This document shows positions 1,236 through 23,019 of a stretch of DNA of 64,000 bases, piece by piece. Numbering within the stretch: the stretch's first letter is position 1; every line of letters begins with the position of its first letter. The notes beneath the pieces are model-generated. The model was not told the DNA's origin. It did no database searches and saw only the letters and a program-made list of their open reading frames with translations. A program made the position numbers and the translations under genes. This DNA comes from a virus: the IMG/VR virus record IMGVR_UViG_3300025168_000036; one strand, written 5' to 3'.

Positions 1236-1994
1236 TCATATTTTTATCCATTCTTTTGGTATTAAGTCATTTGTATTTAGTTTCTTATCTGTTCCAAACC
1301 AAGTCATAGGTGCAACAACTCTTTTGTCACTATTTCTATTTAGCCAAGCAGCCCACCAACTAAATGTACTATTTGCTATAACGTTGTCGCTACACATAGA
1401 CATTGTATACATATCAATATAGTCCTTCTCGCCTTCAATAAAGTTAAATTCACTACTAAAGTTATCCTTACACCAGTTGATATCATCACTAAAGATTATG
1501 TAATTACTGTATAACTTCTTATCTGCTAGTAAGCCTATAGCCTTTGAGTAGTATTCCATATTACATACTGGATGCATTGTTGGGTATTTTATATAATCAC
1601 CCCTTCTTATATGTATCCCAAGACTATTGAATAATATGTTTCCGTATTTATTATCTATATAATCTTCTATCTCTTTTGTTGGTGAGAGCATATCATATAT
1701 AAAGCCACCATAGTCATAAAAGTATTGCTCTGACTGAAAGTATCCATCTAGTGAGACGTTTGGCGGTATTTCATTATATTCAAATGACTGCTCTTTGTAG
1801 ATATTGTTTTGTATACTTTCTGATATCTTTATATTTCTAAGTATATTATCTTTATACTCATTATATCCTGGAGGTATTGTGCTTGTCATTTCTACACCAT
1901 CCCTTAAAGATGCTGCCTTTGCAGCTGCTAACTGAAATAGTGTATTTCCGAGGCCATTATTATTGATACTATCTTTTATAATTACACTTGCCAT
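1236..1994 (-). CDS. GT11 alpha-1,2-fucosyltransferase-like
   Basis: GLGNTLFQ, GYFQSE, HIRRGDY, FSDD, NSTFSWWAAWL. Confidence 0.9.
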   Translation of the reverse strand: MASVIIKDSINNNGLGNTLFQLAAAKAASLRDGVEMTSTIPPGYNEYKDNILRNIKISESIQNNIYKEQSFEYNEIPPNVSLDGYFQSEQYFYDYGGFIYDMLSPTKEIEDYIDNKYGNILFNSLGIHIRRGDYIKYPTMHPVCNMEYYSKAIGLLADKKLYSNYIIFSDDINWCKDNFSSEFNFIEGEKDYIDMYTMSMCSDNVIANSTFSWWAAWLNRNSDKRVVAPMTWFGTDKKLNTNDLIPKEWIKI

Positions 1995-3304
1995 TATAAC
2001 CTCATCATTCCGTAGTCTACATTTCTTTGTTGTATATCACTCCATCCATCCTCTTGATACATTAGCCAAGGGTGGAAAGCATATGCATTTAGCTGGCCAG
2101 CAGCTTGCATCTCTGCATATTGTACATCAATTTGTCTGTTAATGAATCTTGTTGCTTCAAGTAGCTTGTCGTAGGCGGTATCTTTTATAATATAAGCTGA
2201 TGTTGTATATGCAAAATTACATTTTACTATTTTGTCATTTACTCTTGTATATGGCTTTTTGTGATTGCAACCTAAATAGATCATCTCCCAATCTTCTGGT
2301 ATATTACTATAGCCTTCAAAAAACTTTTCAAGCATATTGTCAATAAATACTACATCATCTTCCAATATAAGAATTGACTTTAGGCCCCTTGCCTTTGCCT
2401 CTGATATTATATTAAAATGTGATAGATAGCATCCTACCTCTCCTGAGTTTAAGTTTTGGTGTCTAGCTTGTGTATTGCCATCTACTGCCTCAAACCTTCT
2501 AAAGTTTATAGAAAGATCTTTTAACCTAGACTTTGACCTTATCATTCTATCTGGTCTTGACTTCATATTTACAACATAGGTCTCTTCAAACATGTTATTA
2601 AACTTTTTTGAAAGTTTTGTCTCATTTCTTATGAATGTATCTTTACAAAAGTCAAGCAGCTCATCCTTCTTGGATCTTAACTCAGTCTGTCTACCTTGAT
2701 CATGCTGATCAGACTCAAGAATGAAATTATTATTTGATCTCTTAAGGTTGCCTTTATATTTGTGCTTAAAGTAATAGCTTAACCATAAATCTTCAATAAA
2801 TTTGTACTTATCTGGCAAATTATCAAAAAGTTCGTTTTCGGTAAACACACGAATTGGTAATATCATACCACCAGTACCACAGTAATCGACATCCTCTCCA
2901 GGAGTATCAACTCCTTCCTTATCCCAGTAGGACTCTTTTATTCTATGTGCATAAAATGAAAATATTGTATCTGGTCTATATTCTGATAAGAATGTCTCTA
3001 CCATATCTTCACCAAATTGTACATCATCATCTATAAAAATACATGGGCCTTCGTATTGATCTGTTAGATTCTTTGCAAAATAGAATCTTCCTATTCCTCC
3101 TACATTATCTTTGCTATGGTGAACTTCAATATTATATGATAGCTTATACATTGACACTATTTCATCTAGTTTTTTACTATCATCAGCATTATTATTCCAA
3201 ATATACAAATCGAATTCATGAGTTGTTTGGCCTTCAAGCATTGCAAGAGTTCTAGGTATATTATCTGTCCTCTTCCAATTACACATTATAATTGGTGTCT
3301 TCAT
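1994..3304 (-). CDS. Bifunctional glycosyltransferase (GT2-like N-domain plus GT25 C-domain)
   Basis: N-domain FIDDD and EDLWLS; C-domain VVNMKSRPDR, RFEAVDG, GCYLSH, ILEDD. Confidence 0.8.
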   Translation of the reverse strand: MKTPIIMCNWKRTDNIPRTLAMLEGQTTHEFDLYIWNNNADDSKKLDEIVSMYKLSYNIEVHHSKDNVGGIGRFYFAKNLTDQYEGPCIFIDDDVQFGEDMVETFLSEYRPDTIFSFYAHRIKESYWDKEGVDTPGEDVDYCGTGGMILPIRVFTENELFDNLPDKYKFIEDLWLSYYFKHKYKGNLKRSNNNFILESDQHDQGRQTELRSKKDELLDFCKDTFIRNETKLSKKFNNMFEETYVVNMKSRPDRMIRSKSRLKDLSINFRRFEAVDGNTQARHQNLNSGEVGCYLSHFNIISEAKARGLKSILILEDDVVFIDNMLEKFFEGYSNIPEDWEMIYLGCNHKKPYTRVNDKIVKCNFAYTTSAYIIKDTAYDKLLEATRFINRQIDVQYAEMQAAGQLNAYAFHPWLMYQEDGWSDIQQRNVDYGMMRL

Positions 3305-3951
3305 TTCCTTAATCCCATTTCTCTTTCTTTATTATCATGCCAGTCATTATCACTAACTTGTTTTTCCAGTGTTTTTCTATGATATATTGCATAAAGCTCT
3401 TCCTCTGGTAGTGCTGCGAATGTGTCTTGCCCTATTAGTCTTCCGTGAGGTATTGGATTAAAATGAATACCTTTATTATTTCTGAATAGCCTGTCCTGAA
3501 CATCTGGCCAGTTAACTCTACCTTTTTCATCTAAGACCCAACCTCTTGAAGCTCTATATTCCTCTGTAAGCCCTTCTACAATATTAGTTCTTGGTAGAAA
3601 GAATACATCAACATCATTTGTACTTATTAGATTATGAACTATCATATAGAATCTTTCATCAAGCAATTCATCTGCATCTAAATAGAATAAATAGTCTGTA
3701 TCTGCTTGTGTTGCCAGCCAATTTTTTTGGTCATGAATTGCCTTATCTACAGGCTTTTCAAATGATATAATATCATCCTTATAGCTTTCAATTATATATT
3801 TTGTCTTATTATTTGATCCGTTTGAGTCTCGAACAATATAAACTTTGTCACTAGTGCCTTTTAATTCAGTAATTTGTTTTAATAATTGATTAAGTGATTC
3901 ATCTTCATTCTTACAGAGAATCATGTATCCTATAGTGAGTTCTTTCGCCAT
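3301..3951 (-). CDS. GT2-family glycosyltransferase
   Basis: ILCKNE, LFYLDADE (DxD), WPDVQDRLFRN. Confidence 0.8.
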   Translation of the reverse strand: MAKELTIGYMILCKNEDESLNQLLKQITELKGTSDKVYIVRDSNGSNNKTKYIIESYKDDIISFEKPVDKAIHDQKNWLATQADTDYLFYLDADELLDERFYMIVHNLISTNDVDVFFLPRTNIVEGLTEEYRASRGWVLDEKGRVNWPDVQDRLFRNNKGIHFNPIPHGRLIGQDTFAALPEEELYAIYHRKTLEKQVSDNDWHDNKEREMGLRK

Positions 3952-4412
3952 AATTTTTCTACCTTACTGTTAAATTTATAATCTAATAATTGTATTCCTC
4001 TTAGCTTAGCAGTGAAAAAAGTTCTATAGCTATCACCTAAACCAAAAGTATCTGTCTTATATGTTGCCTTTAATACTGTTTTATAGAAGTTTCTTGGGTC
4101 TGCCTGCATTTGAAGAACTGGTATATCTAATGCCAATATTTCAGGTGTTGTATCTAGTGTTCTTAAACCTACAGATTCAACCCATCTATTAAATGCACTA
4201 TATGATACTTTATCCAATGACATACAATGAGTCTTCTTTAGGTGTTCTGCATTTAGTACAACTAATACTTGCCTCTTACTTGCACCTTCTAGCCCTTTGT
4301 ATCTACACTCAATTAACATACCTCTTTCTAGTTTAGCTATATTTGTTGGGTACTTACCTTGCACTCTAATCAAGTGCTCATTTAATCTACCTTCTACCTT
4401 TTGCTTAGCCAT
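3930..4412 (-). CDS. Hypothetical protein
   Basis: 160-aa ORF overlapping both neighbours in the operon. Confidence 0.6.
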   Translation of the reverse strand: MAKQKVEGRLNEHLIRVQGKYPTNIAKLERGMLIECRYKGLEGASKRQVLVVLNAEHLKKTHCMSLDKVSYSAFNRWVESVGLRTLDTTPEILALDIPVLQMQADPRNFYKTVLKATYKTDTFGLGDSYRTFFTAKLRGIQLLDYKFNSKVEKLWRKNSL

Positions 4413-4866
4413 CGAATTTTATCTCGCCCATTTCATTACATGCCTCTAAGAATCTCTTAAAGTGCTTAGTGTCTTTTGTTTCTAATTTAGACTCATACTT
4501 TAGTGTGCCCTGCGAAGCACTAGAAGCCTCATCTTCTGTTAGCTGAACAATTGGTGTGTATGACCAGCCCCATTTATCCTTGCGCCCCTCAGGATATATC
4601 ATTCCTCTCTCAGTCTGTATAGTTGTTGGGTACCAATATGATTCTCCATCATCAAATCTTAGGTCTTTCATTAATTTTGGCATATTCGATTCATACTTTT
4701 CTATATCAAAGTCTGGGTTCTTTTTATAATTTAACGGATTTTCATTAGTATAGAATCCACTTCCAACACACATCTTTGACACTCCATGTCTATCATCAAG
4801 CTCTTGTATTACATGCTTTTCATTTGTTATTGGGCTTACTACCCATTCAGCTTTGCTATTATCCAT
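4405..4866 (-). CDS. Hypothetical protein
   Basis: 153-aa ORF, translationally coupled to neighbours. Confidence 0.6.
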   Translation of the reverse strand: MDNSKAEWVVSPITNEKHVIQELDDRHGVSKMCVGSGFYTNENPLNYKKNPDFDIEKYESNMPKLMKDLRFDDGESYWYPTTIQTERGMIYPEGRKDKWGWSYTPIVQLTEDEASSASQGTLKYESKLETKDTKHFKRFLEACNEMGEIKFDG

Positions 4867-6119
4867 TATACTTTCTCCAGTTTTGGTATGTTTAACTTAA
4901 TCTTTTTTGCAAACTTTGGAAGATTTGATTCAAGTATTTTATCAAAACTTTTTGTCATTTCATCCAAATTAAAGTCTTCTCTTATTAATCTTGCCTGCTT
5001 TCTTGCATCTGGTATATATGTCTTATAATTCTTAAATACATCTTTTAATATACTTGATGCATAGCCATAATCAACATAAAACCATTTCGAGCCTTTTAAT
5101 ATCATATTATTTGCTGCAGATTTGTCCACTTCCATTAGCTTACCTGGTAGCTTAATTGCATGTGTAGTGAAGTCTACTTGTCCTGACCAATTTGATACAA
5201 TTAGTGGCTTTTGTGTTATACAGAATTCTGCTAGTGGCCTTCCATATCCTTCACCATGAGAAAATGACACCATAGCCTTAATCTTTGGATGATTATATAA
5301 ACCATTCATCTCGTCTTCAGTTAATTTACCTTCAAGAACATATATGTTTGGAGGATTATCATATCCTTCAGTAATTTGTTGTATCTTTTTATCTATTTCG
5401 TTATATTCAAGTATGCTAAATGTTGCACCAGATGTCTTTATTACTAGTGCTGGCCTCTTTGATTTGCCTGTATTCTTAAATGTTTCTAAGAATGTCTTTA
5501 TTGTTCCACCAATATCTTTTCTGTCATGGCCAAACCCTCCTGCAATCCAATGTCCTGTAAATAAGAAGCAAAAGTCTTCATCTATATTGTCTAGGCTATC
5601 TACTATTGTAGCTGGTATCTCAGCCTTGTCAACCTTTCTAAATACATCTGTATCTATTCCTTCAAATAGTACGTCTATTGGAACTTCACACTTAAGCGAG
5701 CCTATAATTTCACCTGTTTGGTCATTTTTTTTATCATATACTGTATCCACAAGAATTTGCCTTGCGTGGTGTGATGGTACGATTACTCTGTCCATTCTAT
5801 TACAGCCATCTATCCACTCGTGAGGTGCCTGTGTTGTTTCTATTCCAGCAGTAATTCCTATATTATATTTTGCAACTTTCTTGAATTCATTAGGTACTGA
5901 TAGCTGCATGAATACATCAATTTGTTGCTTTTGATCTTTAAGTACATACTTTTCAAATTCTGGAAACTTATCATTTGGGCAGTCTCCCCAGTTTGTTGGA
6001 ACACATTTAATATCAAACCTATCCATAGCTATTAAGCTTTTTAATAGATCTCTTGCATGATCTCCATATCCAGATCTTGAAAATATTGGGGCCTGAAAGC
6101 CTATTGTTGTTTTACTCAT
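4866..6119 (-). CDS. GT4 (GT-B) glycosyltransferase
   Basis: SRSGYG, DRKDIG, and E-x7-E motif in GEGYGRPLAE. Confidence 0.85.
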   Translation of the reverse strand: MSKTTIGFQAPIFSRSGYGDHARDLLKSLIAMDRFDIKCVPTNWGDCPNDKFPEFEKYVLKDQKQQIDVFMQLSVPNEFKKVAKYNIGITAGIETTQAPHEWIDGCNRMDRVIVPSHHARQILVDTVYDKKNDQTGEIIGSLKCEVPIDVLFEGIDTDVFRKVDKAEIPATIVDSLDNIDEDFCFLFTGHWIAGGFGHDRKDIGGTIKTFLETFKNTGKSKRPALVIKTSGATFSILEYNEIDKKIQQITEGYDNPPNIYVLEGKLTEDEMNGLYNHPKIKAMVSFSHGEGYGRPLAEFCITQKPLIVSNWSGQVDFTTHAIKLPGKLMEVDKSAANNMILKGSKWFYVDYGYASSILKDVFKNYKTYIPDARKQARLIREDFNLDEMTKSFDKILESNLPKFAKKIKLNIPKLEKV

Positions 6120-7537
6120 CTTATAACTCCCGTAGGGTATTTTATTAATTTATTATTTGTTTTTCTTTTTAGTGTAAATATTTTTCTAGGCTTAAATGAA
6201 TTAAGACAAATATCAATAGAGTTAGATACGCCATCTGCCATTGCTTGCGCAGTAAAATTATTTGCTAAGGCCCATTCTCTACCTTTTGTTCCAGCTGAAG
6301 ATCTTTCATCTTTGCTTAATGAATATACACTATTTATTGCATTTGTTATATCACTTACACTAACTCTACTATCATAAATATAAGGTGTTACTGGTGAACC
6401 TACCAAGTTTATTTGTGGCCACATTGGAAATGCCCATTCACCATGTTCTTTATATCTACCATTACTATTACTTGGCCAAGATTCTGTATAGTCATTTACT
6501 GTTAGGTCATTACCTTTTTCATTCTTAAAGCCCATCTGGTCCTGCAGGCCACCTATACAGCTTGCAATAATTGGTGTTCCTGACATTATTGATTCCATTA
6601 CACTAAGACCAAATCCTTCAGCTGAGCTTGGTTGACAGGTTACATCTGAAAGATTGTATAGATAATTTAGCTGATTTGATGGTATCTTTCCACTTGAGAA
6701 TATAACATTTGCTTTAGGAGCTAATGCTTTAACTACTGCAGGGAGATCTGTTCCATTTTGATCTATTGGATCTGTATGTAGTATTAGAAATGCATTTTGC
6801 CTTTCAGCCTCAGTCTCTAGTGAATCAACAAATGTTTTATATGCTAGTATTAAATCTTGTGGTCTCTTTCTTTGTATATTTCTGCTATTAAATAGTAAAA
6901 CAAAAGAATCATCACTTAGTTGTGGGAAATATTTATCCTTAAATTCAATTAAGCCCTTATCAGATTTGTCAAGTGGCTTAAATACCTTTTCATCAACTCC
7001 ATGTGGTACATATGTTAAATCTACACCTTCTTTTCTCGGATTCTTTTGGCATACATGCTTATTTATATTATATGTTTGTTTTGATATTGCAATTAGTGAA
7101 TCACAACAGTCATAGAATGGCTCATTCCAATGAGGAAAAGGAAGGTCATCCCATATATTATAGTACATAATAGGAGTAGTTTGTCTTAATTCATGCTCCA
7201 TTTGATATAGCCAACCCCAAAACCTTGGGTCTGTAAAGTGTATTATTGCATCAGGCTTCTCGATTGATAATATCTGCTGTAATATTTGCTTGTTTCCATA
7301 ACCATCTACTGGATATAACTTAAGATAGAAGTTATCAACACCGCTATCCCTTTTTACATCCTCATTTTTACTTAAGTCAACTACATTACCTTTATCTGGT
7401 GATTGTAGTGCACCTGCTATCTGTACCCAGTCATATTTATCTAAAGACTTTAGTACTATTTCTTTACTCATTGTGCCAACACCAGACGGTAGCCTAATAT
7501 CATCACCTAATAAGAGTATCTTCTTCTTTTTTGTCAT
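6116..7537 (-). CDS. GT4 (GT-B) glycosyltransferase
   Basis: PSGVG, VPHGVD, RNIQRKR, AEGFGLSVME, GGLQD. Confidence 0.85.
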   Translation of the reverse strand: MTKKKKILLLGDDIRLPSGVGTMSKEIVLKSLDKYDWVQIAGALQSPDKGNVVDLSKNEDVKRDSGVDNFYLKLYPVDGYGNKQILQQILSIEKPDAIIHFTDPRFWGWLYQMEHELRQTTPIMYYNIWDDLPFPHWNEPFYDCCDSLIAISKQTYNINKHVCQKNPRKEGVDLTYVPHGVDEKVFKPLDKSDKGLIEFKDKYFPQLSDDSFVLLFNSRNIQRKRPQDLILAYKTFVDSLETEAERQNAFLILHTDPIDQNGTDLPAVVKALAPKANVIFSSGKIPSNQLNYLYNLSDVTCQPSSAEGFGLSVMESIMSGTPIIASCIGGLQDQMGFKNEKGNDLTVNDYTESWPSNSNGRYKEHGEWAFPMWPQINLVGSPVTPYIYDSRVSVSDITNAINSVYSLSKDERSSAGTKGREWALANNFTAQAMADGVSNSIDICLNSFKPRKIFTLKRKTNNKLIKYPTGVIR

Positions 7538-8387: not shown

Positions 8388-8737
8388 AAGGAACCCTCCT
8401 TTCTCATTTGAGCTCTAATCTTTGTTGCTGAAATTTGTTCAACTTGATTAGGTGGTACGTGTTCTATAACTTCATATCCTACACCTCTACCATAATTTAC
8501 TGATTCTATGTCTGGAACTATTGTTATTTTTATTCTACCTTCATCTATTAAGCCTTTTAGCTCACTACTTAGATTTGTTAGAACCTCATGTGGTGTCCAA
8601 GGTTGATTTTCATTTGGTTTAACATCTCTTATTGCTATCCATACATTCTTACCTTCATTAAGCCTTTGATCTATTAACCATCGGTGTCCTTTGTGCCAAG
8701 GCTGCCACCTTCCTATAAACATTGAGTACTTTTTCAT
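8384..8737 (-). CDS. Small HIGH-motif nucleotidyltransferase (cytidylyltransferase-like)
   Basis: FIGRWQPWHKGH (HxGH) and C-terminal ISATKIR. Confidence 0.8.
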   Translation of the reverse strand: MKKYSMFIGRWQPWHKGHRWLIDQRLNEGKNVWIAIRDVKPNENQPWTPHEVLTNLSSELKGLIDEGRIKITIVPDIESVNYGRGVGYEVIEHVPPNQVEQISATKIRAQMRKEGSL

Positions 8738-9495
8738 ATCCCTTTATCCCTTTTTACATTTATTGCTATTGCTCTTTTGCCAGACTTATTTGGGTCCATA
8801 TCATTTATAATATATCTAGGGCCTCTTTCAATACCCATAATTAATTTATCATATGGGATTCCACTTTTTGTTAGCTCACCTATCGTAAGCCCCTTTAATG
8901 TCTCTGGTCTAGCAGTTGTTAATATTATCATATGGCCATCATCATACCATTCATTTAACTTATCCACTGTTGCCTTTATTGGTTCTGCATCTGTAGATTC
9001 ATATGTTTCAAATTTTCTGTACTTAAATATTGTTCCATCAATGTCGCAGAAGTATGTATTTTTCTTCTTTCTATTAAATTCAATACCTTCAAGGCACTCA
9101 TCAAGTGTCGGAGAGCCTGTTGTATCAATATCTATAAAGTGCTCTATTGGCTTTTCATAATCTTGTGCAAAATATTTCTCTCTTCCCCTTATATCAGTTG
9201 TGTGTACATATATCTCAGTGACATCATTTGTCTCTTTTAATTCATCTCTCATATCTCTATAAGGTGCAACTACTGACACTACTGGTGTAAACCCTTTATT
9301 GTCTAGGAATCTACAAAGGTCTAGTACTGACCTTATATTCTTTCTCCTACCTTCTGGACTATAATTAAAATTTTGAAATAGATCCCTTAATCCATCTCCA
9401 TCTATGTGAATACAATTATCACTACATCTATCTATAAGTGCTTTTGCTAATGTTGTCTTTCCAGCTCCTGGCTGGCCTGTAAACCAATATATCAT
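8734..9495 (-). CDS. cysC: Adenylylsulfate (APS) kinase fused to a HAD phosphatase
   Basis: WFTGQPGAGKTT, IDGDGLR, VAPY, YEKP (APS kinase); DIDGT and TTARP (HAD). Confidence 0.8.
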   Translation of the reverse strand: MIYWFTGQPGAGKTTLAKALIDRCSDNCIHIDGDGLRDLFQNFNYSPEGRRKNIRSVLDLCRFLDNKGFTPVVSVVAPYRDMRDELKETNDVTEIYVHTTDIRGREKYFAQDYEKPIEHFIDIDTTGSPTLDECLEGIEFNRKKKNTYFCDIDGTIFKYRKFETYESTDAEPIKATVDKLNEWYDDGHMIILTTARPETLKGLTIGELTKSGIPYDKLIMGIERGPRYIINDMDPNKSGKRAIAINVKRDKGI

Positions 9496-13487: not shown

Positions 13488-13780
13488 TATTTTGTCTCCT
13501 TATAAATTGTTAAAATTTCATCTTCTCTACATACGATGAACTCTTCTCTATTAACTTCAAGTCTTTTAGCTGAAAATTTTGGATAGTATACTACATCGCC
13601 TACCTTACATTGCATATGACCTCTTTTTCCAGTATTTAGTAGTGGGCCGGGACCTACTGCTAATACTTCGCCTTTAAGTGATACTTCTGCATCAACTTCT
13701 GGCATAATTACTCCACCTGATGTCATTTCATCTGGTTCTAATCCTTTTAATACTACATTTCCTCCTGTTGGTGTAAACAT
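13487..13780 (-). CDS. groES: Co-chaperonin GroES
   Basis: TSGGVIMP mobile loop, GEVLAVGPG, KVGDVV, REDEIL. Confidence 0.92.
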   Translation of the reverse strand: MFTPTGGNVVLKGLEPDEMTSGGVIMPEVDAEVSLKGEVLAVGPGPLLNTGKRGHMQCKVGDVVYYPKFSAKRLEVNREEFIVCREDEILTIYKETK

Positions 13781-14499
13781 TATATTGCCTCCTTATCTTT
13801 AATTCTTAATTTATTTTCTATTTCATGTGAGCTTCTTACACATGATATTCCTAATTGGTCTTTCATTACTTCTGGTGTTGTGCAAGACTGGTTAAAGCTT
13901 GCAAAATCTGTTTTACTTGGGAACCTTCCACAACCTGCAAATAGACACCCAAATGCATTTGATAAATAATCTGCAGCTGCGTAGTCACACTTTCCTATTA
14001 AGTCACATCCTGGCTTGAAGCTTTTTGCAGCTTCAATTCCCATATCGATCATCTTCTCTCTTAATAGCCAATGTAAACCTACAATAAACTCTTCCTCGCA
14101 AAACTTAAGCCTTCTCATCATCTGTCCTCTAAGAGAATTAATATTTTGCTCAACTACGTATGTACATTCTCTTGACATTAAATTAAACAATTCAGGATTT
14201 TCGCTTTCAGATACTCTGTGCTTTTCCAGTTCAGATAGCGTTTTTATGGTTTTGTCGCGAAAGTCTGAGTTCTTCTCCATTAACTCATATACCTGAGTAT
14301 AAACCACATATGTTGGGTTTGGATTAACCTCATATTGCTTAAATTTAATTCCTACTCTAGCCCTTGAATGTTGATCATATTGGCAAATTGGTGTCCCTTT
14401 TACTCTATATGTTATCATACCAGAAGCCTGATGCCAATTCAAAATGTCTACTTCTAGACCTTTCACTCCACACTTTATTTCAATGTTATTAACTTTCAT
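13780..14499 (-). CDS. Divergent ThyX-fold protein B
   Basis: ITYRVKG..DQHSRARVG (RHR-like), NINSLRGQMMRRL, C-terminal PGC...GKC. Confidence 0.55.
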   Translation of the reverse strand: MKVNNIEIKCGVKGLEVDILNWHQASGMITYRVKGTPICQYDQHSRARVGIKFKQYEVNPNPTYVVYTQVYELMEKNSDFRDKTIKTLSELEKHRVSESENPELFNLMSRECTYVVEQNINSLRGQMMRRLKFCEEEFIVGLHWLLREKMIDMGIEAAKSFKPGCDLIGKCDYAAADYLSNAFGCLFAGCGRFPSKTDFASFNQSCTTPEVMKDQLGISCVRSSHEIENKLRIKDKEAI

Positions 14500-15307
14500 A
14501 AAATAATTCTTTATCCTTTTTGCTTAAATCTTCAAATTTATATTCTCTTATCTTATGTAATACAACATCTGTATTTTCAAATATTACACTCAGATATAAA
14601 CCTATAAATGGGAATTGTTTTTCAACAACACTTACAAGTTCTTTATAGAGTATTGCCAATGACTGCTCTTTTACATTATCACCAAACTTTCCTGATGCAT
14701 TGAATCCTCTCATTGATACTAATGAAAGTAAATTTTGGCCAAAATGATATGAGTGTTGATAGCTTTGTGGTAAGAATGTTCTACCAGACTGCCAACTTGA
14801 TTGATCTTCATTTAATACATCTGCATATATTTGCTTTAAGTCATTAAATGTTTTCTTTTCTTCTGATGATAGTTTTCTTTTGCCTACAGTAATAATGTCT
14901 ACATCAGACTTATTATTGTCTCTGCATCCTATACTCATAAAACTTGTGAATGGGGTCTGAGTGTGGTAGTCAAATAGCCATCTTGGTACACCTCTTACTC
15001 TGAATATAAATTGTACCATTTCTCTTGCTTGTGGTAGTGTATTGTGAGTCAATACAGCTTTTACAACCTCAAACTTACCTTCAGGAGTTGTTTCTGGCCA
15101 TTTTTGCTTAAACTTATTGTCACCCCAAGTAGAAGTACTTGTCACAAACATTGACTTATAAGGATTTGTCATGTGGTCTTCTAATGTGACCTCAACCTCA
15201 TCAATCATATCGTGAAATTCAGTAACAACTGGTGGCCTCTCTTCTGGGAGAGTTCCCATAACTTTTCTTAGGTTTTCTACAACCTCGTAACTTAATTTAT
15301 CTTCCAT
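14489..15307 (-). CDS. Divergent ThyX-fold protein A
   Basis: AREMVQFIFRVRGVPR, SFMSIGCRD, GRTFLPQ, NLLSL, KQFP; the RHR motif is lost. Confidence 0.65.
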   Translation of the reverse strand: MEDKLSYEVVENLRKVMGTLPEERPPVVTEFHDMIDEVEVTLEDHMTNPYKSMFVTSTSTWGDNKFKQKWPETTPEGKFEVVKAVLTHNTLPQAREMVQFIFRVRGVPRWLFDYHTQTPFTSFMSIGCRDNNKSDVDIITVGKRKLSSEEKKTFNDLKQIYADVLNEDQSSWQSGRTFLPQSYQHSYHFGQNLLSLVSMRGFNASGKFGDNVKEQSLAILYKELVSVVEKQFPFIGLYLSVIFENTDVVLHKIREYKFEDLSKKDKELFYES

Positions 15308-15343: not shown

Positions 15344-16300
15344 TTAAATATAAAAATGTAACGAATCAAATTTTATATTTATTTTAATATTTTCTACTTT
15401 AGTATTTTTATCAAACCAGATTTTTATCATTTTGCATATAGATATAAAGTCATGGTTAAATAGCCCTACGTTTGAGGACCTAAAGTTTACACTTACATTT
15501 AATGTATTATTTCTAAGTAGAATATGAACATATGACAGGCACTCATCATCTGTAAATACAAATCTTCTACTATGTGAGTCTTCCTTCTTTCCATAGTATC
15601 CTGATAGCTCTGATTCTATCTTTTTTGTGAATTTAGCTAATTGGAATTTATAACTGTCAACTTCAAGCTGCATATAGTCATTTATATTCTCCAACCCTGT
15701 ATATAGATCTTTTGATGCCCAACTTTCCACATCGTCATAAGACATATCTAAATCCATCTTATAATTTATAAGCTCCTTAGTACCACCAACACTAGCTCCG
15801 TATTCCTGTAATGCAGTCATTGCTGTTCCTATTTGGTGCTCTGGGCTTAATAAAAATTCATTATACATTTCTATAATGCCATTAATTCTTTTTGCAATAG
15901 ATCCTGGATCATCCTCTCCATCTATTACCCAAAAGTTTCTATGCTTTTCAAATCTAATGCATAGATCTTTATATATTCTTGCCACATGCTTTATTGACGA
16001 CCAAGACTGGAATTCATCTCCCCTATTACAATATCTCCTATGCAACTCTGCCTCACTAATGTCAAAATAGAAAACTATATTGTCATTAAGATAAGATATA
16101 AACTCATGTTCTCTTTCTTCATTATTGTCGAATCTGTTATGTAGCATGCCGTAAGCCATTATTGACATCAAGCCTCTATCGTTTAAGAGGACGTCATAGT
16201 CGTTGCCAGATTGTATAATTTCCCAAACCTTTTGGTATTGAGTTGTCTTACCTGAACAGTCAGGTCCTTCAAATATCAATTGTAGTCTTTTATTCATCAT
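15344..16300 (-). CDS. dNMP (thymidylate-kinase-like) kinase fused to a minimal ThyA/dCMP-hydroxymethylase-like domain
   Basis: EGPDCSGKTT and NDR (kinase); SRR, ECLSY, FRSSN, HDF, SLHFY (TS fold). Start is 16300 or 16297. Confidence 0.7.
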   Translation of the reverse strand: MMNKRLQLIFEGPDCSGKTTQYQKVWEIIQSGNDYDVLLNDRGLMSIMAYGMLHNRFDNNEEREHEFISYLNDNIVFYFDISEAELHRRYCNRGDEFQSWSSIKHVARIYKDLCIRFEKHRNFWVIDGEDDPGSIAKRINGIIEMYNEFLLSPEHQIGTAMTALQEYGASVGGTKELINYKMDLDMSYDDVESWASKDLYTGLENINDYMQLEVDSYKFQLAKFTKKIESELSGYYGKKEDSHSRRFVFTDDECLSYVHILLRNNTLNVSVNFRSSNVGLFNHDFISICKMIKIWFDKNTKVENIKINIKFDSLHFYI

Positions 16301-18536
16301 TAAACCTTTCATAAATTTTATTTAAGAACATTGTCTCACTATCTTTAAATCTACCAAGAGATATTAGCACCAATTCACCAGGTTCTATTTCCTCAAAACC
16401 TTTCATCTTATTCTGCCATATAAAGAAGTCTATTGAGCCATTGTCATCTTTTAGTGTTGCAATACCCATAGGCTTACCAGAAGACTTACTTCTTTTTGCA
16501 ATATATTTATCTACTATACCTATAATATAACAACCCATCTTGTCACCAAGTTTCATCCTTACTTCACTTGGTAGCATTGTATTTTGAAACTTAAAGTCTC
16601 TTTCTGTAAGTATTTGTACCATCTCTTTAATAGTGTCATTTATAAGATACTTTACATTAGTAGACATTGCACCATATTCAAGTTCTTTTAACTCTGTAAA
16701 GTTAAACTTTTTATCTTCATAGTCAGGTTGCTTTTTCTTTGGTAGCCTACCTTTATGAAATTGATTATAAGTATCCACCTCCTCATCCCATGAATCAAAT
16801 GCACCTGCAAATATTAAGTTTTCAACCTTTGACTTATTTTTAATTTCAGATCTGTCCAAGAAGTCCTGGAAGCTATTATATGGTGCGTGATTTAGTATTA
16901 GCTCCACATCACTAGGTGAAACAGTCTTAATTGCATCAAAGCCAAATAGTATACTTTTATCAACTATTGTAAATCCTTTTTGAGATGCATTTATATTTGC
17001 ACGTTCAACTTTAAAGCCTAGTTTCTTTGCAACATTAATGTGCTTCATCATATCAGTTCCTGGTTCAGAGTTGTCAAGCATAACCTTCATATATTCAATT
17101 GGGTAATTTGCCTTAAAGTATCCACCCCAATAAGATATTAATGAATAAGATACAGAATGGGCTTGATTAAAGCCATAGGCTGCAAATGCAGCACACTTTT
17201 CAAATAGATCCATTGCATCTGATTCCTTGATATGAACTGATAAGCCTTTGATAAACTTTTCCTTGTATAGACCAATATTCTTTTGCCTTTGCTCCATTGA
17301 TTCCCAGTCACGGTACTTAACTAATACCTTTCTAAACTTATTTGATTCTGAATCTGTAAACCCTGCAATAAGTGCCAGTTTCATAATTTGTTCTTGATAG
17401 GTAATAATTCCATATGTTTCTTCTAGGACTGTGTTAAGTGGTTCTGGCCACCTTTCGTACTCACCTGAATGTTTACGTTTGGCATACTCAGTTGGCATAC
17501 CTTCCATAAGTGGGCCAGGTCTTAATAGTGCAGAAACTGCTGATAGTTCAGCAACTGAGTCTGCCTTAACATCTTTTAAGATACCTTTTGCTGTGCCTGA
17601 TTCAAATTGAAATATTGTATCAGTATCTGATGTGTGGAATATTTTCTTAAATGTATATTCATCATCTAGTGGAATGTCACCTAGTTTTAGATTAAGTCCA
17701 TGCCTTTTATTAACAAGGTCCATAGTTGCACCTACTATTGATACATTTTTAAGGCCAAGTATATCAAACTTTACATATCCCATATGCTTAAGGCCGTAAG
17801 TTCCAGTACCTTCCTCCCATGCTGATGATATACCATCACCAATTTTATTTAGTGCAATATTTTCATCTAAGTTTTCAGATGATATAATAACACCAGCTGG
17901 ATGTGTTCCGTAATTCCTAAGCATACCTCTAATCTTTTCTGCATAGAATTTAACCTTGGGGTATTTTGTAAAGTATTGTTTTAGTTTGTCAAAGTCATTA
18001 GCAAGTTCATCAAATGTTTTCTTTTCAGTTGACTCACCAGCCATGATAGTCTTTGTCATACCGAATGTATCCTTTGCAGGGACACCTAATGCACCAGCAA
18101 CATCTTGTATAATTGCCCTTGTTTTTGCAAGCTGATATACACCAATTTGTTTTACCTTTTCTCTACCAAACCTTTCATAGATGTAATTAATGACCTTTTG
18201 CCTTCCATGCCTACATACATCTTGATCAATATCAACAAGATCGACATCACCATCAGTTATAATCTCTGGCTTTTTATTTGTTTCAATGGGGTTTTCCTCA
18301 TAAATATCCAACAGCCAGTACAACAGACTATTTTGTTTATTACCTGGCAATTTCTTGCCTTTATTTTCGGTTATAAACGCCTGAATCTGCTTGTACTGGT
18401 CTGGATATCGTGCCTGGTAAAAATCGATTGCATCACACTCTTGTTGTAGCCAAGCAATATGCTCATCAAGACCTCTTTCCCTAAGGACCTTTGATGCATT
18501 CGTAAATATTTTATCTCCAATTAGTATCTTACTCAT
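16290..18536 (-). CDS. dnaE: DNA polymerase III alpha (family C), catalytic/C-terminal subunit
   Basis: DIDQD, HPAGVIIS, KFDILGL, FQFES, LRPGP, YQEQIM, YGFNQAHS, C-terminal OB fold. Confidence 0.92.
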   Translation of the reverse strand: MSKILIGDKIFTNASKVLRERGLDEHIAWLQQECDAIDFYQARYPDQYKQIQAFITENKGKKLPGNKQNSLLYWLLDIYEENPIETNKKPEIITDGDVDLVDIDQDVCRHGRQKVINYIYERFGREKVKQIGVYQLAKTRAIIQDVAGALGVPAKDTFGMTKTIMAGESTEKKTFDELANDFDKLKQYFTKYPKVKFYAEKIRGMLRNYGTHPAGVIISSENLDENIALNKIGDGISSAWEEGTGTYGLKHMGYVKFDILGLKNVSIVGATMDLVNKRHGLNLKLGDIPLDDEYTFKKIFHTSDTDTIFQFESGTAKGILKDVKADSVAELSAVSALLRPGPLMEGMPTEYAKRKHSGEYERWPEPLNTVLEETYGIITYQEQIMKLALIAGFTDSESNKFRKVLVKYRDWESMEQRQKNIGLYKEKFIKGLSVHIKESDAMDLFEKCAAFAAYGFNQAHSVSYSLISYWGGYFKANYPIEYMKVMLDNSEPGTDMMKHINVAKKLGFKVERANINASQKGFTIVDKSILFGFDAIKTVSPSDVELILNHAPYNSFQDFLDRSEIKNKSKVENLIFAGAFDSWDEEVDTYNQFHKGRLPKKKQPDYEDKKFNFTELKELEYGAMSTNVKYLINDTIKEMVQILTERDFKFQNTMLPSEVRMKLGDKMGCYIIGIVDKYIAKRSKSSGKPMGIATLKDDNGSIDFFIWQNKMKGFEEIEPGELVLISLGRFKDSETMFLNKIYERFNDE

Positions 18537-18537
18537 A

Positions 18538-19821
18538 TTATATCATTTTTGGGAATGAAGCTTTATCTCTACCTAGGTCTAAGAACCTCTCAAAGATTAA
18601 ACCCCAATCTAGTGGATTGACTTCTGTTAAGCCTAGCACAAATGCAATTAGGCTTCCTGCAACTGAACCTCTACCAGGTCCAATATATATCTTTTCTTTA
18701 TTACAATATTGTATTATGTCCTCAAGTATAAGAAAGTATCCAATGTAATTCATTTTACGTAATACTGAATATTCATATCTTATCCTATCTTTTACCTCAT
18801 CTGATATATCATTGCCAAATCTGTACTTAAGTCCATGTTTTATCTTTTCTTGAAATATGACTTGTTCATCATCATATAATTTTGGAAGCTTTACATCGGC
18901 ATCAAAGTTTGTGTCTTGAACAAGGTCAAGTATTTTGTGACAGTTATTTGCCGATTCAATAAATACATCTTCAGTAAACCACTCATTGCAGTGGTGCTTT
19001 TTCCAAGATGCATGCATTTCGTCATAGTTTTTATAATAAAGTTCTCTGGCATGATAACCTTTTAAGTTTTCACAATCAGTAATACCATCCTTATTAGATC
19101 TATCTCTAATTGTTATTAGCATGTCATGAACTTCCTGATCATCATAGCGAATATAGTGAGCGTCATTGGTCACAACTGTTTCTATATCAAGTTCTTTTGC
19201 AATCTGAACAAGTTGTTTATTACAATCAATTTGTTCTTGCATCTGATGTACTTGTAGTTCTATAAAGTATTTGTCGCCAAATCTGTCCTTATATCTTTTG
19301 GCCACACTTTTGGCCTGTTCGTAGTCACCATTCATTAAATGAAACGGTATTTCACCACCTAGACATGCAGAAGTGATTACAAGACCCTCACCATATTTAC
19401 TAAGCATTTCAAAATCTGTTCTTGGTTTAGAATAGAAGCCATTCATGTGGGCATCATTATTAATTCTAATTAGATTTTTTATTCCTTTATTATTATATGC
19501 TAAGACAAGAAGGTGAAAATACTTTCTGTATTTTTGTTTGTTTTCATCTATCTGCCTATCACCCTCAGACATAAATCTGTGATTGTTAACATATAGTTCA
19601 CAACCAAACACAGGAGTAATACCCTCTTGTCTAGCATACTTCCATAACCTGGCCCAGGATGAGATCACACCGTGATCAGTAATTGCTAAGTGACTTAAAT
19701 TGTTCTCCTTGCCGAAGTCAATAAGTTCCTGCAACTTTGAAAGTGCATCTCTGGTTGAAAATTCACTATGGCAATGTATTTGTACGAAGCCATTCTTAAC
19801 ATCTTTCCTGGGTTTTATCAT
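18538..19821 (-). CDS. dnaE: DNA polymerase III alpha, N-terminal PHP subunit
   Basis: HCHSEFS..D, AITDHG, GCE, HLLVLA, TNDAHY, GPGRGSVAGSL, FERFL. Confidence 0.92.
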   Translation of the reverse strand: MIKPRKDVKNGFVQIHCHSEFSTRDALSKLQELIDFGKENNLSHLAITDHGVISSWARLWKYARQEGITPVFGCELYVNNHRFMSEGDRQIDENKQKYRKYFHLLVLAYNNKGIKNLIRINNDAHMNGFYSKPRTDFEMLSKYGEGLVITSACLGGEIPFHLMNGDYEQAKSVAKRYKDRFGDKYFIELQVHQMQEQIDCNKQLVQIAKELDIETVVTNDAHYIRYDDQEVHDMLITIRDRSNKDGITDCENLKGYHARELYYKNYDEMHASWKKHHCNEWFTEDVFIESANNCHKILDLVQDTNFDADVKLPKLYDDEQVIFQEKIKHGLKYRFGNDISDEVKDRIRYEYSVLRKMNYIGYFLILEDIIQYCNKEKIYIGPGRGSVAGSLIAFVLGLTEVNPLDWGLIFERFLDLGRDKASFPKMI

Positions 19822-19893: not shown

Positions 19894-20242
19894 ACATGCA
19901 ATGGTTCATCCACTTTCCGTAAAACTTAAGGTATTCTTTTTCCAGTCTGCCAAACGTTAGTGTCTTATAGTGCACACTTTCTAGCTTATCATTTGGGAGG
20001 TGTGTTGAAAGATAGTTATCTATTAAATTTTGCAAACCTTTTATATCATGATACTGTATGAGATTAGTGGGAAAGCAAAACATGAACTCTTTTGTGCCGT
20101 CTTCTCTATTTAGTATATAGCTCCAAAAGTCATCTATATATAATCTTGAATCTATATTACTCTCTACTTGTGATTCCCAAAATTTAATCTCAGCCTTTGC
20201 AGCTGGATTTTCATAGAAGCAGGTTGTTAATTTTACTTTCAT
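19892..20242 (-). CDS. Hypothetical protein within the nucleotide cassette
   Basis: 116-aa ORF overlapping the dNTPase-HAD gene. Confidence 0.55.
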   Translation of the reverse strand: MKVKLTTCFYENPAAKAEIKFWESQVESNIDSRLYIDDFWSYILNREDGTKEFMFCFPTNLIQYHDIKGLQNLIDNYLSTHLPNDKLESVHYKTLTFGRLEKEYLKFYGKWMNHCM

Positions 20243-21143
20243 GTTTTATACCTTTATTTAGTTTTCTATCTAGTGTCTCTTCTGTATATAAGCCAAAGTT
20301 TGGCTTTAAGTATACTTCAAATCCACTATCATTTAATTTATTTGCATTATTTATATCATCATCTATACAAAATGCAACCTGTTCGGGGTCAAAGTTATTT
20401 ATAATATACTTTTCCTTCTCTTCATCAAACACAATTGCATCATAGCATATACCATTGTCCTTAAGCCACTTAATTGTGTCTGAATATATTCTAAAATACT
20501 TTTTATATGGCCTTGCGGTAAGAAGTACAACACTATATTTCTTGCATGCGTCTTTCATAAACTGCTTTGCACCATCTAGCACATCTAATGTTGCTTTTAC
20601 ACCACATGTTCTATATTCAGATTTTATTCTATATTGTTCTTTTTTATCAACTTCTGATTTGAATTGACTTAGACTTTCATAGCCAGACCACTTTAAGAAT
20701 CCACCTGGCCAATCTGCAAGTACACCATCTATATCTATAAAAGCAATCTTTTTATCAGATGCCTTAATCTTTTTCATTACCTTTTCTTGGTTAAATTTAG
20801 CCTCTACAACTCTTGATTTGTCCATAAACTTTTCATATAAGTCATCTACACTAAAGCCATTAAGTTGAATTATTCCAAATAGATATTTTAATACATCAAC
20901 ACATTCCTCTAATACATTATCATTTACATCTTCAGTCTTTTTTGATGTGTGCATCTTCCAATCTATTTCATCTAGTACTTCATATACTTCCTTAGATAAT
21001 GCTAGAACATATTCTTTATTCCATTTTATCTTTAATTCCTTATCATTAACGACATCATCTATTGTAAGATTGTGTTTATCTTTAAAGAACTTCTCTGTAA
21101 AGCTCTTTTGTAATTCGAAAATTTCTTTTAATTTATCTTTCAT
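20211..21143 (-). CDS. All-alpha dNTP pyrophosphatase (dimeric dUTPase/T4 gp56-like) fused to HAD 5'(3')-deoxyribonucleotidase
   Basis: EVYEVLDEIDWKMH...EECVD; then DIDGVLAD, LTARP, IDDD. Start 21143 gives an ATGA overlap with the upstream stop. Confidence 0.8.
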   Translation of the reverse strand: MKDKLKEIFELQKSFTEKFFKDKHNLTIDDVVNDKELKIKWNKEYVLALSKEVYEVLDEIDWKMHTSKKTEDVNDNVLEECVDVLKYLFGIIQLNGFSVDDLYEKFMDKSRVVEAKFNQEKVMKKIKASDKKIAFIDIDGVLADWPGGFLKWSGYESLSQFKSEVDKKEQYRIKSEYRTCGVKATLDVLDGAKQFMKDACKKYSVVLLTARPYKKYFRIYSDTIKWLKDNGICYDAIVFDEEKEKYIINNFDPEQVAFCIDDDINNANKLNDSGFEVYLKPNFGLYTEETLDRKLNKGIKHESKINNLLL

Positions 21144-22099
21144 CTTAATTCCTTTGTCCATCCTAGAACTCTATCTAGTACCTCATTTGCCTTTACCTTA
21201 TGATTCCATTGTGCGAATCTACCTAACATATATATTTTGTCTATCTTATCTAGATTAATACTATTTTGAATTTGGAATGGCAAGCCTTCAAATTTATGTA
21301 TTATAGGATAAGGTGGAGTTATTGGCTCCACAGACTCATATACCATATAATTATTAAAGTATGTCTTTCTTGACCAGCCTTCTGTGTGACCATAAATATA
21401 GTCAAACTTGGATAGCTCACCTTTATTTGTCTGGTAGAAACATTTTGGTAGTGTTGTAAGATCATATTTATCTAGCTCATCTCCATCCCATATTGAACCA
21501 AGTGGAGATTCCTTAGTAAGAAGCTTTAGATTAAGTGTGTTTATAACAACATTATAGCTTCTACACATTGAAGGTCCTGCACCATCCTTTGCATATATGT
21601 ATCCGTGTGAGTCTACCTTTGTAATTCTTTCTCTTTTAAGCTGACCTCTATCAATATCAATTATTTTTAATAGTGTTTCAAATAAGAATTTATAGCTATC
21701 CTCACCCATGTCTTCTATTTCTAGGTGCTGTATTTCATTCTTGCCTTCAGATAGGTAGCTTGACTCAGACTTACTTTTTCCTCTAGTAAGTTTTGTATAC
21801 TTATTCTTAAAACCTGGAGGTAGGACTACGTCTCTTTTTCCATCTTCCTCATACCCAACAATTGCTACAACTGTTTTTATTCTATATGAATGCAAACCTG
21901 CATCATTTAATACACTTCTAACGAATTTTTCTGAATTTTCTGTTTTTTGGATTAATCTAGGTCCTGGAATAAACGGTAAATTTAACTGGCCTAGTGGATT
22001 TTCATCATAAACAGCATATTCTGGAAAGTAGTATCCAGCTATTAAACCTGCCGGACCTCCACCTAATATACAACCTTGTTTCATTTTATTTTCTTTCAT
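21140..22099 (-). CDS. FAD-dependent Rossmann enzyme (UDP-galactopyranose mutase/HemY-like fold)
   Basis: ILGGGPAGL at the N-terminus; LGRFAQWNH near the C-terminus. Confidence 0.7.
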   Translation of the reverse strand: MKENKMKQGCILGGGPAGLIAGYYFPEYAVYDENPLGQLNLPFIPGPRLIQKTENSEKFVRSVLNDAGLHSYRIKTVVAIVGYEEDGKRDVVLPPGFKNKYTKLTRGKSKSESSYLSEGKNEIQHLEIEDMGEDSYKFLFETLLKIIDIDRGQLKRERITKVDSHGYIYAKDGAGPSMCRSYNVVINTLNLKLLTKESPLGSIWDGDELDKYDLTTLPKCFYQTNKGELSKFDYIYGHTEGWSRKTYFNNYMVYESVEPITPPYPIIHKFEGLPFQIQNSINLDKIDKIYMLGRFAQWNHKVKANEVLDRVLGWTKELR

Positions 22100-22134: not shown

Positions 22135-23019
22135 TTATAAGCAACTTAAATATCTTTCACCTCTGTCACATAGTATTGTAATTGCGTTTGTTTTATCATT
22201 ATCTCTTAACCATTGAAATGCAGCTTTAACATTAGCACCTGCACTTATTCCTACAAATAGTCCATATCTTAGAGCTAAGTGTCTTGCAGCTGCCTTAGCA
22301 CATTCAGTTTTAACTGGTACAATATCAGAAACAAAGTTTAGATCTACTAAAAATTTGCTTCCATCACCAATTCCTTGTATGCCATGAAGTCCTGGTTCTC
22401 CTCCGCTCATTACTGCACTTTCCTCTGGCTCAACTGCTACTATATTTATTCCTGGAACTTGCTCCTTTAGATATCCTCCTGCACCCATTATAGTTCCTCC
22501 AGTTCCTGTGCCTACTACAAATGCCTCTGGCCAGTGATCTGTTAGTTCATAGTATTCATCATGTATTTCTGGTCCTGTTGTTTTGTAGTGTGCCTCTATA
22601 TTAAGTGGGTTATGAAATTGATTGCAATTAAAGTATCCAAATGTTTCTGCTAAAGTATCTCTAGTTTCTATTGCTCCATCAAAATCTCCGGCATCAACTT
22701 GTATTAAGTCTGCTCCGTAAAACTTTAGCATTTGTTTTCGCTCTTCAGACATATTAGATGGCATAACAATTTTCATCTTATAGCCCCTTTCTGCTGCTAA
22801 CATTGCAAAAGCTATTCCTGTATTGCCCGAAGTTGCCTCTATTAGTGTGCCTCCTTTTTTAATTAGCTTTCTATTTTCGGCATCATTTAATATGTATGTT
22901 GCCATTCTGTCTTTAACACTACCTCCTGGGTTCATAAACTCACATTTGCCCCATACTGTATACTTTCCAAATCTAATTGGTATAAGCGGTGTATTACCTA
23001 CATTTTTGCTTAATCTCAT
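22135..23019 (-). CDS. cysK: Cysteine synthase (PLP-dependent, CysK/CysM family)
   Basis: GNTPL, NPGGSVKDR, ATSGNTG, GTGTGGT, HGIQGIG, DRGERYLS. Start 23019 overlaps the upstream TGA. Confidence 0.9.
   Translation of the reverse strand: MRLSKNVGNTPLIPIRFGKYTVWGKCEFMNPGGSVKDRMATYILNDAENRKLIKKGGTLIEATSGNTGIAFAMLAAERGYKMKIVMPSNMSEERKQMLKFYGADLIQVDAGDFDGAIETRDTLAETFGYFNCNQFHNPLNIEAHYKTTGPEIHDEYYELTDHWPEAFVVGTGTGGTIMGAGGYLKEQVPGINIVAVEPEESAVMSGGEPGLHGIQGIGDGSKFLVDLNFVSDIVPVKTECAKAAARHLALRYGLFVGISAGANVKAAFQWLRDNDKTNAITILCDRGERYLSCL

Follow-up and report, generated by a model that had tools for sequence, protein, structure and literature searches.

A YorR-type nucleotide kinase fused to a minimal thymidylate synthase-fold domain in a T4-like marine phage: a candidate for dCMP hydroxylation at C5

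The thymidylate synthase (TS) homologues gp48 of phage RB69 and gp80 of phage DLP3 convert deoxycytidine monophosphate (dCMP) to 5-hydroxy-dCMP (5hodCMP), using a loosely bound flavin and taking the oxygen atom from O2 (Lee et al., NAR 2026, PMC13326640). These 5hodCMP synthases carry Asp or Glu in place of Leu143, Asp in place of Asn177 and, as the diagnostic exchange, Asn in place of Asp169; nine diverse natural homologues with the latter replacement all gave 5-hydroxydeoxycytidine (5hodC), and the 5-hydroxy group is then glycosylated on the DNA by GT-B glycosyltransferases (PMC13326640). In Table 1 of the same paper, every system has a 'nucleotide kinase' without an assigned role, encoded at a distance of one or two genes from the synthase; the best match of DLP3_078 in the Protein Data Bank (PDB) is YorR, while RB69p045 and RL38J1_214 match thymidylate kinases (PMC13326640). 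The words 'fusion' and 'fused' are absent from the main text of that paper. Here, we describe an open reading frame (ORF) in a 64,000-nucleotide stretch of the virus record IMGVR_UViG_3300025168_000036, which is called the window below. The ORF lies on the minus strand and encodes 322 amino acids (aa) plus a stop, arranged as an N-terminal P-loop kinase domain and a C-terminal domain of the TS fold. We assign a probability of about 0.5 to the reading that this protein would hydroxylate dCMP at C5, by analogy with the synthases just mentioned, and that the fused kinase would phosphorylate the product.

An earlier note, written from the DNA letters alone, let the ORF start at position 16300, which corresponds to Met5; homologues start at the equivalent of Met1, of Met5/6 or later. 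The last 23 nucleotides of the upstream gene, which is the second part of a split gene for the alpha subunit of DNA polymerase III (Pol III), also belong to the full-length ORF. Its 21 close homologues all stem from marine or other metagenomes, share 36–99% identity with it and all have the full two-domain length. Searches by tblastn with the whole protein and two distant family members against 50,697 GenBank phage records gave no match, a scan of 185,579 prokaryote genomes, of low sensitivity as it used two peptide patterns only, yielded no confirmed relative, and BFVD returned ordinary phage TS homologues and no clear copy of the fused architecture. Neither Pfam nor NCBIfam holds a model for the kinase/mini-TS family, and the sole label given by the source is 'thymidylate kinase'.

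An AlphaFold2 (AF2) model was calculated from a 13-sequence alignment (mean predicted local distance difference test score, pLDDT, 84; predicted template modelling score, pTM, 0.77). When the C-terminal domain was compared with the PDB by Foldseek, the best match was 9iqu, deposited as 'phage HY126 dCMP hydroxylase AfhB with dCMP' (E 3.1e-6), and the second was 9iqc, 'monooxygenase dependent on riboflavin with dCMP and FAD' (E 2.7e-5), both at 15–18% identity. They were followed by dozens of ThyA chains and T4 dCMP hydroxymethylase, the TS family as a whole covering a range from E 3e-6 to 1e-4 with probability 1.0. By sequence comparison, 9iqc and 9iqu are near-identical to RB69 gp48. The HY126 homologue to which these structures belong was reportedly described by He et al. 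in Nature Chemical Biology in 2026. In VIA-align, where unmatched models typically reach Z values of 7–8, residues 153–322 scored 11.9 with MilA, 11.8 with AfhB (9iqu) and 11.0 with ThyA, with 144–160 residues aligned. A 119-member family profile compared by hhalign yielded a probability of 95.9% for the 5hodCMP synthases (E 5e-9), 93.9% for gp42 of phage PS2 and 85% for Escherichia coli ThyA. Sequence searches were empty, with no match to PF00303 (Thymidylat_synt) even at E ≤ 1 in the Pfam scan and none of the domain to the PDB (phmmer, profiles A1 and A2) or to NCBIfam, so that the link to the TS fold is drawn from structure and profile–profile comparison only. Distant family members do match phrog_160, 'thymidylate synthase', at E 8e-8 and TIGR03283 weakly, and a language-model feature search with the C-terminal domain returned Thymidylat_synt clusters. 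As judged from the model, the domain has the TS fold and the likeness is beyond chance. The earlier note had proposed a deoxynucleoside monophosphate kinase followed by a stripped-down TS fold and had suggested a fold comparison of the C-terminal part; the model, the Foldseek matches, the Z values of 11–12 and the profile comparison all agree with that proposal, including the order of the domains. At about 165 residues, this TS core with its catalytic set is the smallest version of the fold found here.

For the assignment of residues, the domain was aligned with E. coli ThyA, RB69 gp48, gp42 of the Serratia phage PS2 and the ThyA from another locus, L014, and also with 5hodCMP synthase homologues from Acinetobacter phage PhT2 and Rhizobium phage RHph_I34. 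The motifs that had been read from the sequence before are all present, within S-R-R, D-D-E-C-L-S-Y, R-S and D-S-L-H-F-Y, and their counterparts in ThyA are listed in Table 1. The presumed nucleophile Cys258 precedes the arginine of the R-S motif by 20 residues, exactly as in E. coli ThyA and RB69 gp48. Two independent hhalign runs placed Asp288 at the position of Asn177 by way of a one-residue deletion, as the earlier note had done, and the Asn claimed for the Asp169 position is found in R278-S-S-N281 and is invariant in the 13-sequence clade as well as in the 21 closest homologues. The loop between the paired arginines and the cysteine comprises 8 residues versus 19 in E. coli ThyA, which is the predicted shortening by 11, and versus 24 in RB69 gp48. 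The C-terminal tail is missing, likewise as predicted: the chain ends three residues past His319, where E. coli ThyA continues for 57 and RB69 gp48 for 14 residues. With regard to the proposed likeness between SLHFY and the SLHVY of gp42, PS2 gp42, the sole gp42 compared, has GSLHLY. Acidic residues, D255-D256-E257, stand before the cysteine and there is no counterpart of the hydrophobic Leu143, although the exact position of this match is loose, as the loop is shorter than that of ThyA. Most of ThyA region 37–93, including Glu58, Trp80 and Trp83, is missing or unrecognisable.

Taken together, the domain shares with RB69 gp48 and HY126 AfhB the TS fold, the spacing between Cys and R-S, the 'RS[QS]N' motif with Asn at the Asp169 position, the Asp at the Asn177 position, an acidic residue before the cysteine and the lack of the long ThyA C-terminus; the RB69-type cluster also resembles the window in having a YorR/Tmk-like kinase and glycosyltransferases near the synthase. 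The domain differs from the 5hodCMP synthases in its length (167 versus 234–258 aa), the segment from the first beta-hairpin to Tyr94 being mostly missing, in the shorter loop between the paired arginines and the cysteine, in the one-residue deletion before the specificity Asp and in being fused to a kinase. With less than 20% identity, the relationship is detectable by structure and profile–profile comparison only. ThyA (PF00303) and the CMP hydroxymethylase MilA (PDB 5b6e) have in common with it the fold, the Cys/Arg/Ser/His core and the architecture of an obligate dimer with cross-subunit arginines, as predicted for the window domain; ThyA is set apart by its Pfam family, by Asn177 and Asp169, which are exchanged for Asp and Asn in the window domain, by about 100 additional residues and by the fact that the phage has separate ThyX genes for the formation of deoxythymidine monophosphate (dTMP).

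An exhaustive profile search with the C-terminal domain retrieved 183 clusters at E ≤ 1e-3 from uncultured sequences. About half of them are 295–337 aa long with an N-terminal P-loop, and the others are stand-alone proteins of about 165–200 aa or fragments. Conservation was counted over 153 representatives of clusters at ≤50% identity, wherever the position in question was aligned. Cys258 and Arg249 are present in 152 of 152, Arg278 and Ser279 in 151 of 151 and His319 in 126 of 126 cases, Asp288 in 145 of 148, Arg267 in 145 and Tyr221 in 115 of 127. This is the pattern expected of an active enzyme that binds a cytosine nucleotide.

For a homodimer of the C-terminal domain the interface score ipSAE was 0.70, compared to 0.00 for the best control, and three runs had at least 97% of their contacts in common with a partner pLDDT of at least 87. 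Among proteins of solved structure, 20 of 30 homo-pairs and 1 of 23 single chains attain the mark applied, and the score may partly reflect likeness to solved TS dimers, which are abundant. In the predicted dimer, R249 and R250 of one copy touch R278 and S279 of the other, a TS-like arrangement in which the arginines of the partner are predicted to complete the phosphate site. What the prediction shows is a TS-like interface, not dimerisation in the cell.

The N-terminal domain forms a P-loop kinase fold in the AF2 model (residues 9–155). Its Pfam match to PF02223 (Thymidylate_kin) has an E value of 2.5e-5 and, at 24.5 bits, lies below the 27-bit cut-off, and the score with the equivalog model for dTMP kinases, TIGR00041, is 34.6 bits versus a cut-off of 83. 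The family profile finds YorR of the Bacillus subtilis prophage SPbeta (2axp) in the PDB at E 5.8e-9 and thymidylate kinases at about 1e-6, and VIA-align superimposes the domain on YorR 3kb2 with Z 12.7 and a root mean square deviation of 3.0 Å over 138 residues. The P-loop, D45-R46, R93 and R97-G-D-E show full or almost full conservation among homologues. YorR, RB69p045 and DLP3_078 share the fold, the P-loop and the D-R and R-G-D-E motifs with this domain and are likewise tied to phage replication and modification modules, but they are stand-alone proteins of about 170–180 aa, while the window kinase is fused. When compared with RB69p045, the kinase of the RB69 cluster for 5-hydroxycytosine (5hoC), the domain gave an hhalign probability of 94.6%. 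In view of this likeness and of that between the C-terminal domain and the synthases, the window protein looks like the two RB69 proteins joined, with the synthase cut to its core.

Fusion is not the only way in which the two parts are linked. At locus L024, a 137-aa kinase gene is followed, two bases past its stop, by a 170-aa mini-TS gene, with each of the two homologous to one half of the window protein (E 1.6e-5 and 2e-17); the same gene order is found at locus L025. Fusion on the one hand and abutting genes on the other form a Rosetta-stone pattern, which argues that kinase and mini-TS work together and supports the view that the two activities are coupled and that the product is handed from one to the other.

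These findings also bear on the idea that the kinase is a plain dTMP kinase and that the TS-like domain serves as a non-catalytic module for dimerisation, nucleotide sensing or docking. The fusion contains the only Tmk-like kinase of the genome, a ThyX or ThyA is always encoded close by and the predicted interface is strong, all of which would suit such a role. A scaffold, however, would not need what is kept across about 150 clusters at ≤50% identity, i.e., the cysteine, both sets of phosphate-binding Arg and Ser residues, Asp288 and His319, and mini-TS genes that stand alone exist as well. We consider it very improbable that the domain is a mere scaffold.

For the substrate, the flavin and O2 chemistry, the product, the specificity of the kinase and the fate of the hydroxyl group, we infer the following course of events. 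Asp288 would read the amino group of cytosine, Arg278 and Ser279 together with Arg249' and Arg250' of the partner would hold the phosphate and His319 the 3'-OH. Cys258 would attack C6 and thereby activate C5. Given the Asn at the Asp169 position, the lack of the hydrophobic Leu143 and the lack of the C-terminus that closes over folate, the activated C5 would most likely react with a flavin hydroperoxide, formed from reduced flavin and O2, to give 5hodCMP as in RB69 gp48 and HY126 AfhB. The YorR-type kinase would phosphorylate the modified deoxynucleoside monophosphate to the diphosphate, en route to the Pol III-type replicase of the phage. Once in DNA, the hydroxyl group may become a target of the phage glycosyltransferases. 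The earlier note had thought of a non-folate co-substrate, an idea that gains support, by analogy, from the published flavin- and O2-dependent 5hodCMP synthases. Hydroxylation is favoured by the top match in Foldseek, the top profile score, the diagnostic residues, the non-hydrophobic residues before the cysteine, the lack of folate elements and the kinase partner.

A number of observations weigh against this reading. Its structural basis does not single out one enzyme, the Z values from VIA-align being tied between AfhB, MilA and ThyA. No counterpart of Arg21 was found in the alignments, and those of Glu58 and Tyr94 are ambiguous, as hhalign proposes E217 and Y221 and MAFFT proposes Y240. Even the smallest 5hodCMP synthase tested exceeds the domain by about 70 residues. 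The genome has no gene for a flavin reductase of family PF01613, and BLASTP of the window GT4 glycosyltransferases against the arabinosyltransferases of PhT2 gave nothing significant. As the only Tmk-like kinase in the genome, the fused kinase could simply provide the phage with dTMP kinase activity. The residue at position 281 is divided in the family: 63 of the 153 representatives have Asn and 67 have Asp, with a ratio of Asn to Asp of 43:16 in the fused and 16:43 in the stand-alone forms, and even a fairly close relative, P0022, has Asp. In a FastTree phylogeny of 119 sequences, which are short and divergent, Asn and Asp replace each other at least 15 times, compared to about 35 times for shuffled labels. 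Such frequent switching implies that the diagnostic value of Asn may not transfer to this family. Either two easily interconverting chemistries exist side by side, or position 281 matters less here.

It is at this point that a folate-dependent dCMP hydroxymethylase or methylase has to be considered, that is, a miniature gp42 that would pass 5-hydroxymethyl- or 5-methyl-dCMP to the fused kinase. T4-type gp42, represented by PS2 gp42 and by the T4 enzyme (T4dCH, 6l18), resembles the window domain in its fold, the specificity Asp, an Arg nine residues after the cysteine and a GSLH-x-Y end, and it works with a deoxynucleoside monophosphate kinase; acidic residues before the cysteine are a further common trait, and the profile probability for PS2 gp42 comes close to that for the 5hodCMP synthases. 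Asp-type members account for about half of the family; their 'RSSD..LLP.D' motif, ThyA-like in its 'LLP.D' part, is also reminiscent of gp42, and with Asn and Asp interchanging so often the whole family might share one chemistry. On the other hand, gp42 is a folate-dependent enzyme of about 245 aa that retains Asp169 (RSND) and has no kinase fused to it. Asn281 is present in the window protein and in each of its 21 closest homologues, and Asn is the residue found at the Asp169 site in every 5hodCMP producer (PMC13326640). The elements that close over folate, together with most of region 37–93, are lost or unrecognisable in the window domain. For these reasons we regard a folate-dependent reaction as quite unlikely for this protein.

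Another Cys-dependent reaction on a cytosine nucleotide might introduce a substituent at C5 that has not been described, act on CMP or CDP or bring about deamination by way of a C6 adduct, perhaps together with the neighbouring flavoproteins, i.e., the ThyX pair or a protein with a GxGxxG motif. In favour of such a reaction, the active-site set is invariant, but the fold is the smallest known and Arg21, Glu58 and Tyr94 have no secure counterparts; MilA, which acts on CMP, tops the VIA-align list, the neighbours vary by clade (a methyltransferase at locus L010, an NTP_transf_3+Phosphodiest protein at locus L012), and the conserved companions include ThyX and the 319-aa GxGxxG protein. There is, however, positive support for no particular reaction of this kind, and His319 as the ligand of the 3'-OH and the replication context favour a deoxynucleotide. 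A role as Cys-assisted dCMP deaminase was set aside, as the genome has a gene for a canonical zinc dCMP deaminase at another place. Overall, a reaction of this type appears rather unlikely. A bolder proposal is that the proteins with a minimal TS fold and a kinase form a separate branch with a C5 chemistry that has not been described, or with hydroxylation fed by ThyX or the 319-aa GxGxxG protein as flavin donors, and that cytosine replacement in abundant marine T4-like phages has gone undetected. This, too, we hold to be unlikely.

A flavin-dependent dCMP hydroxylase with a TS fold is no longer new as a kind of enzyme, having been published in 2025–2026. New are the minimal core of 165 residues, its fusion to or tight pairing with a kinase and the sizeable unannotated family in uncultured, largely marine phages. 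If hydroxylation as preferred here is correct, 5-hydroxycytosine or a related cytosine modified at C5, possibly glycosylated, would not be limited to the phages of enterobacteria, Acinetobacter and Rhizobium but would extend to a wide range of uncultured marine myoviruses, with consequences for the recovery and sequencing of their DNA, for resistance to restriction and CRISPR and for estimates of modified bases in the ocean virome. The minimal TS core is also a natural test of which parts of the fold are needed for attack on C6 and which for the choice between folate and flavin as cofactor. Finally, the kinase fusions and split pairs provide a Rosetta-stone hint to the role of the YorR-like 'nucleotide kinase' in the RB69 and DLP3 clusters.

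Table 1. Features of the kinase/mini-TS fusion and its surroundings (window coordinates)
Feature	Position	Strand	Basis or remark
Whole ORF, kinase plus minimal TS-fold domain	15344..16312	-	translation, homologues, AF2 model
P-loop kinase domain, YorR/thymidylate-kinase type, residues 1-155	15848..16312	-	Pfam, PDB profile search, VIA-align, hhalign
P-loop GPDCSGKTT	16241-16267	-	
D45-R46	16175-16180	-	
R97-G-D-E	16013-16024	-	
Minimal TS-fold domain, residues 156-322 (167 aa)	15347..15847	-	Foldseek, VIA-align, hhalign, feature search
S248-R249-R250, counterpart of ThyA Arg126/Arg127	15563..15571	-	alignments, conservation, predicted dimer
D255-D256-E257-C258, presumed nucleophile Cys258 (counterpart of Cys146) with acidic residues before it	15539..15550	-	alignments
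R278-S279-S280-N281...D288	15449..15481	-	R278/S279 correspond to Arg166/Ser167 (phosphate), N281 to Asp169, D288 to Asn177
His319, counterpart of His207	15356..15358	-	alignments
Two divergent ThyX-like paralogues, directly downstream	13780..15307 (14489-15307; 13780-14499)	-	conserved neighbour
MazG/dUTPase_2-type pyrophosphatase fused to NT5C	20211-21161	-	conserved companion
319-aa GxGxxG protein without Pfam/NCBIfam family	21140-22099	-	conserved companion
Glycosyltransferase cluster: GT-B/GT4 paralogue pair (4866-7537), then GT2, GT2+GT25, GT11	1236..7537	-	
Pol III alpha, split gene	16290-19821	-	
P-loop kinase plus HAD phosphatase	8734-9495	-	
PALP-family enzyme	22135-23082	-	

The source record is a complete genome of 145,441 bp with direct terminal repeats; within the window all genes lie on one strand, and the GC content is about 34%. 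The carrier of the fusion gene is a T4-like marine myovirus. Its structural genes are of the T4 type (capsid gp23, portal gp20, prohead protease, sheath and baseplate), and its genes for replication and repair include those for Pol III alpha, DnaB, RecA, a gp32-like protein, ribonucleotide reductase, GroES/GroEL and UvdE. Neither a ThyA of family PF00303 nor a trimeric dUTPase was found in the genome. Within its own clade, the fusion is always placed after the genes for Pol III alpha, and a gene for a thymidylate synthase is always nearby: a pair of ThyX genes in the window and in L006/L008, a single ThyX in L010, L023 and L024 and a ThyA with RSWD and Asn in L014. The mini-TS domain is therefore not the dTMP synthase of the phage. 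The genes for the MazG-type and the 319-aa protein accompany the module across phages with different polymerases. The glycosyltransferase cluster starts about 8 kb downstream of the fusion, and its GT4 paralogues are conserved in L001, L002 and L006. Such an arrangement would suit the decoration of a hydroxylated base and equally the glycosylation of another target.

The two ThyX-like proteins comprise 272 and 239 aa, and only the first has a weak match to the Pfam family Thy1 (E 2.6e-4). Both align to overlapping parts of a single ThyX of 322–332 aa from L010 and L024, which marks them as paralogues of one ancestral ThyX; they may form a hetero-oligomer. With an all-alpha NTP pyrophosphatase fused to an NT5C 5'-deoxynucleotidase, a single MazG-like protein could take deoxynucleoside triphosphates down to the nucleoside; a reading of its MazG-like domain as a dCTPase of the RB69 gp56 type is not claimed (hhalign probability 8.8%). 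The 319-aa protein carries an N-terminal GGGPAGL dinucleotide-binding motif and a conserved LGR[FY]AQW motif, is weakly similar to UDP-galactopyranose mutase (E 0.065) and has at least 155 homologous clusters in marine metagenomes. Its gene adjoins the MazG-like gene in five loci with the kinase/mini-TS pair, and its AF2 model is poor (pLDDT 52).

Two genes for epimerases/dehydratases of the short-chain dehydrogenase/reductase type (354 and 310 aa) lie just past the window edge, at 134.4–137.1 kb of the genome; their sizes and the presence of a GT11 family member suggest a pathway of the GDP-fucose type. The gene that directly follows the fusion differs between loci. In L012 it encodes an NTP_transf_3+Phosphodiest fusion of 599 aa (L012:10993-12792), and in L010 a methyltransferase-like protein of 266 aa (L010:1713-2513) lies between the fusion and ThyX; either of them could act on a modified base.

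The Pol III alpha gene upstream of the fusion is split into abutting genes for a PHP/N-terminal piece of 427 aa and a core/finger/HHH piece of 748 aa. The same split occurs in L006, L008 and L012, while in L023 the gene is cut differently and contains an inserted DUF7487 gene. Elsewhere in the window, a P-loop kinase of the APS-kinase/Zeta-like type is combined with a phosphatase of the haloacid dehalogenase (HAD) type, resembling the polynucleotide kinase-phosphatase of the T4 Pnk type. An enzyme of the pyridoxal phosphate-dependent PALP family (E 7e-68) is encoded between the gene for the 319-aa protein and the ribonucleotide reductase genes and is conserved in L002–L004.

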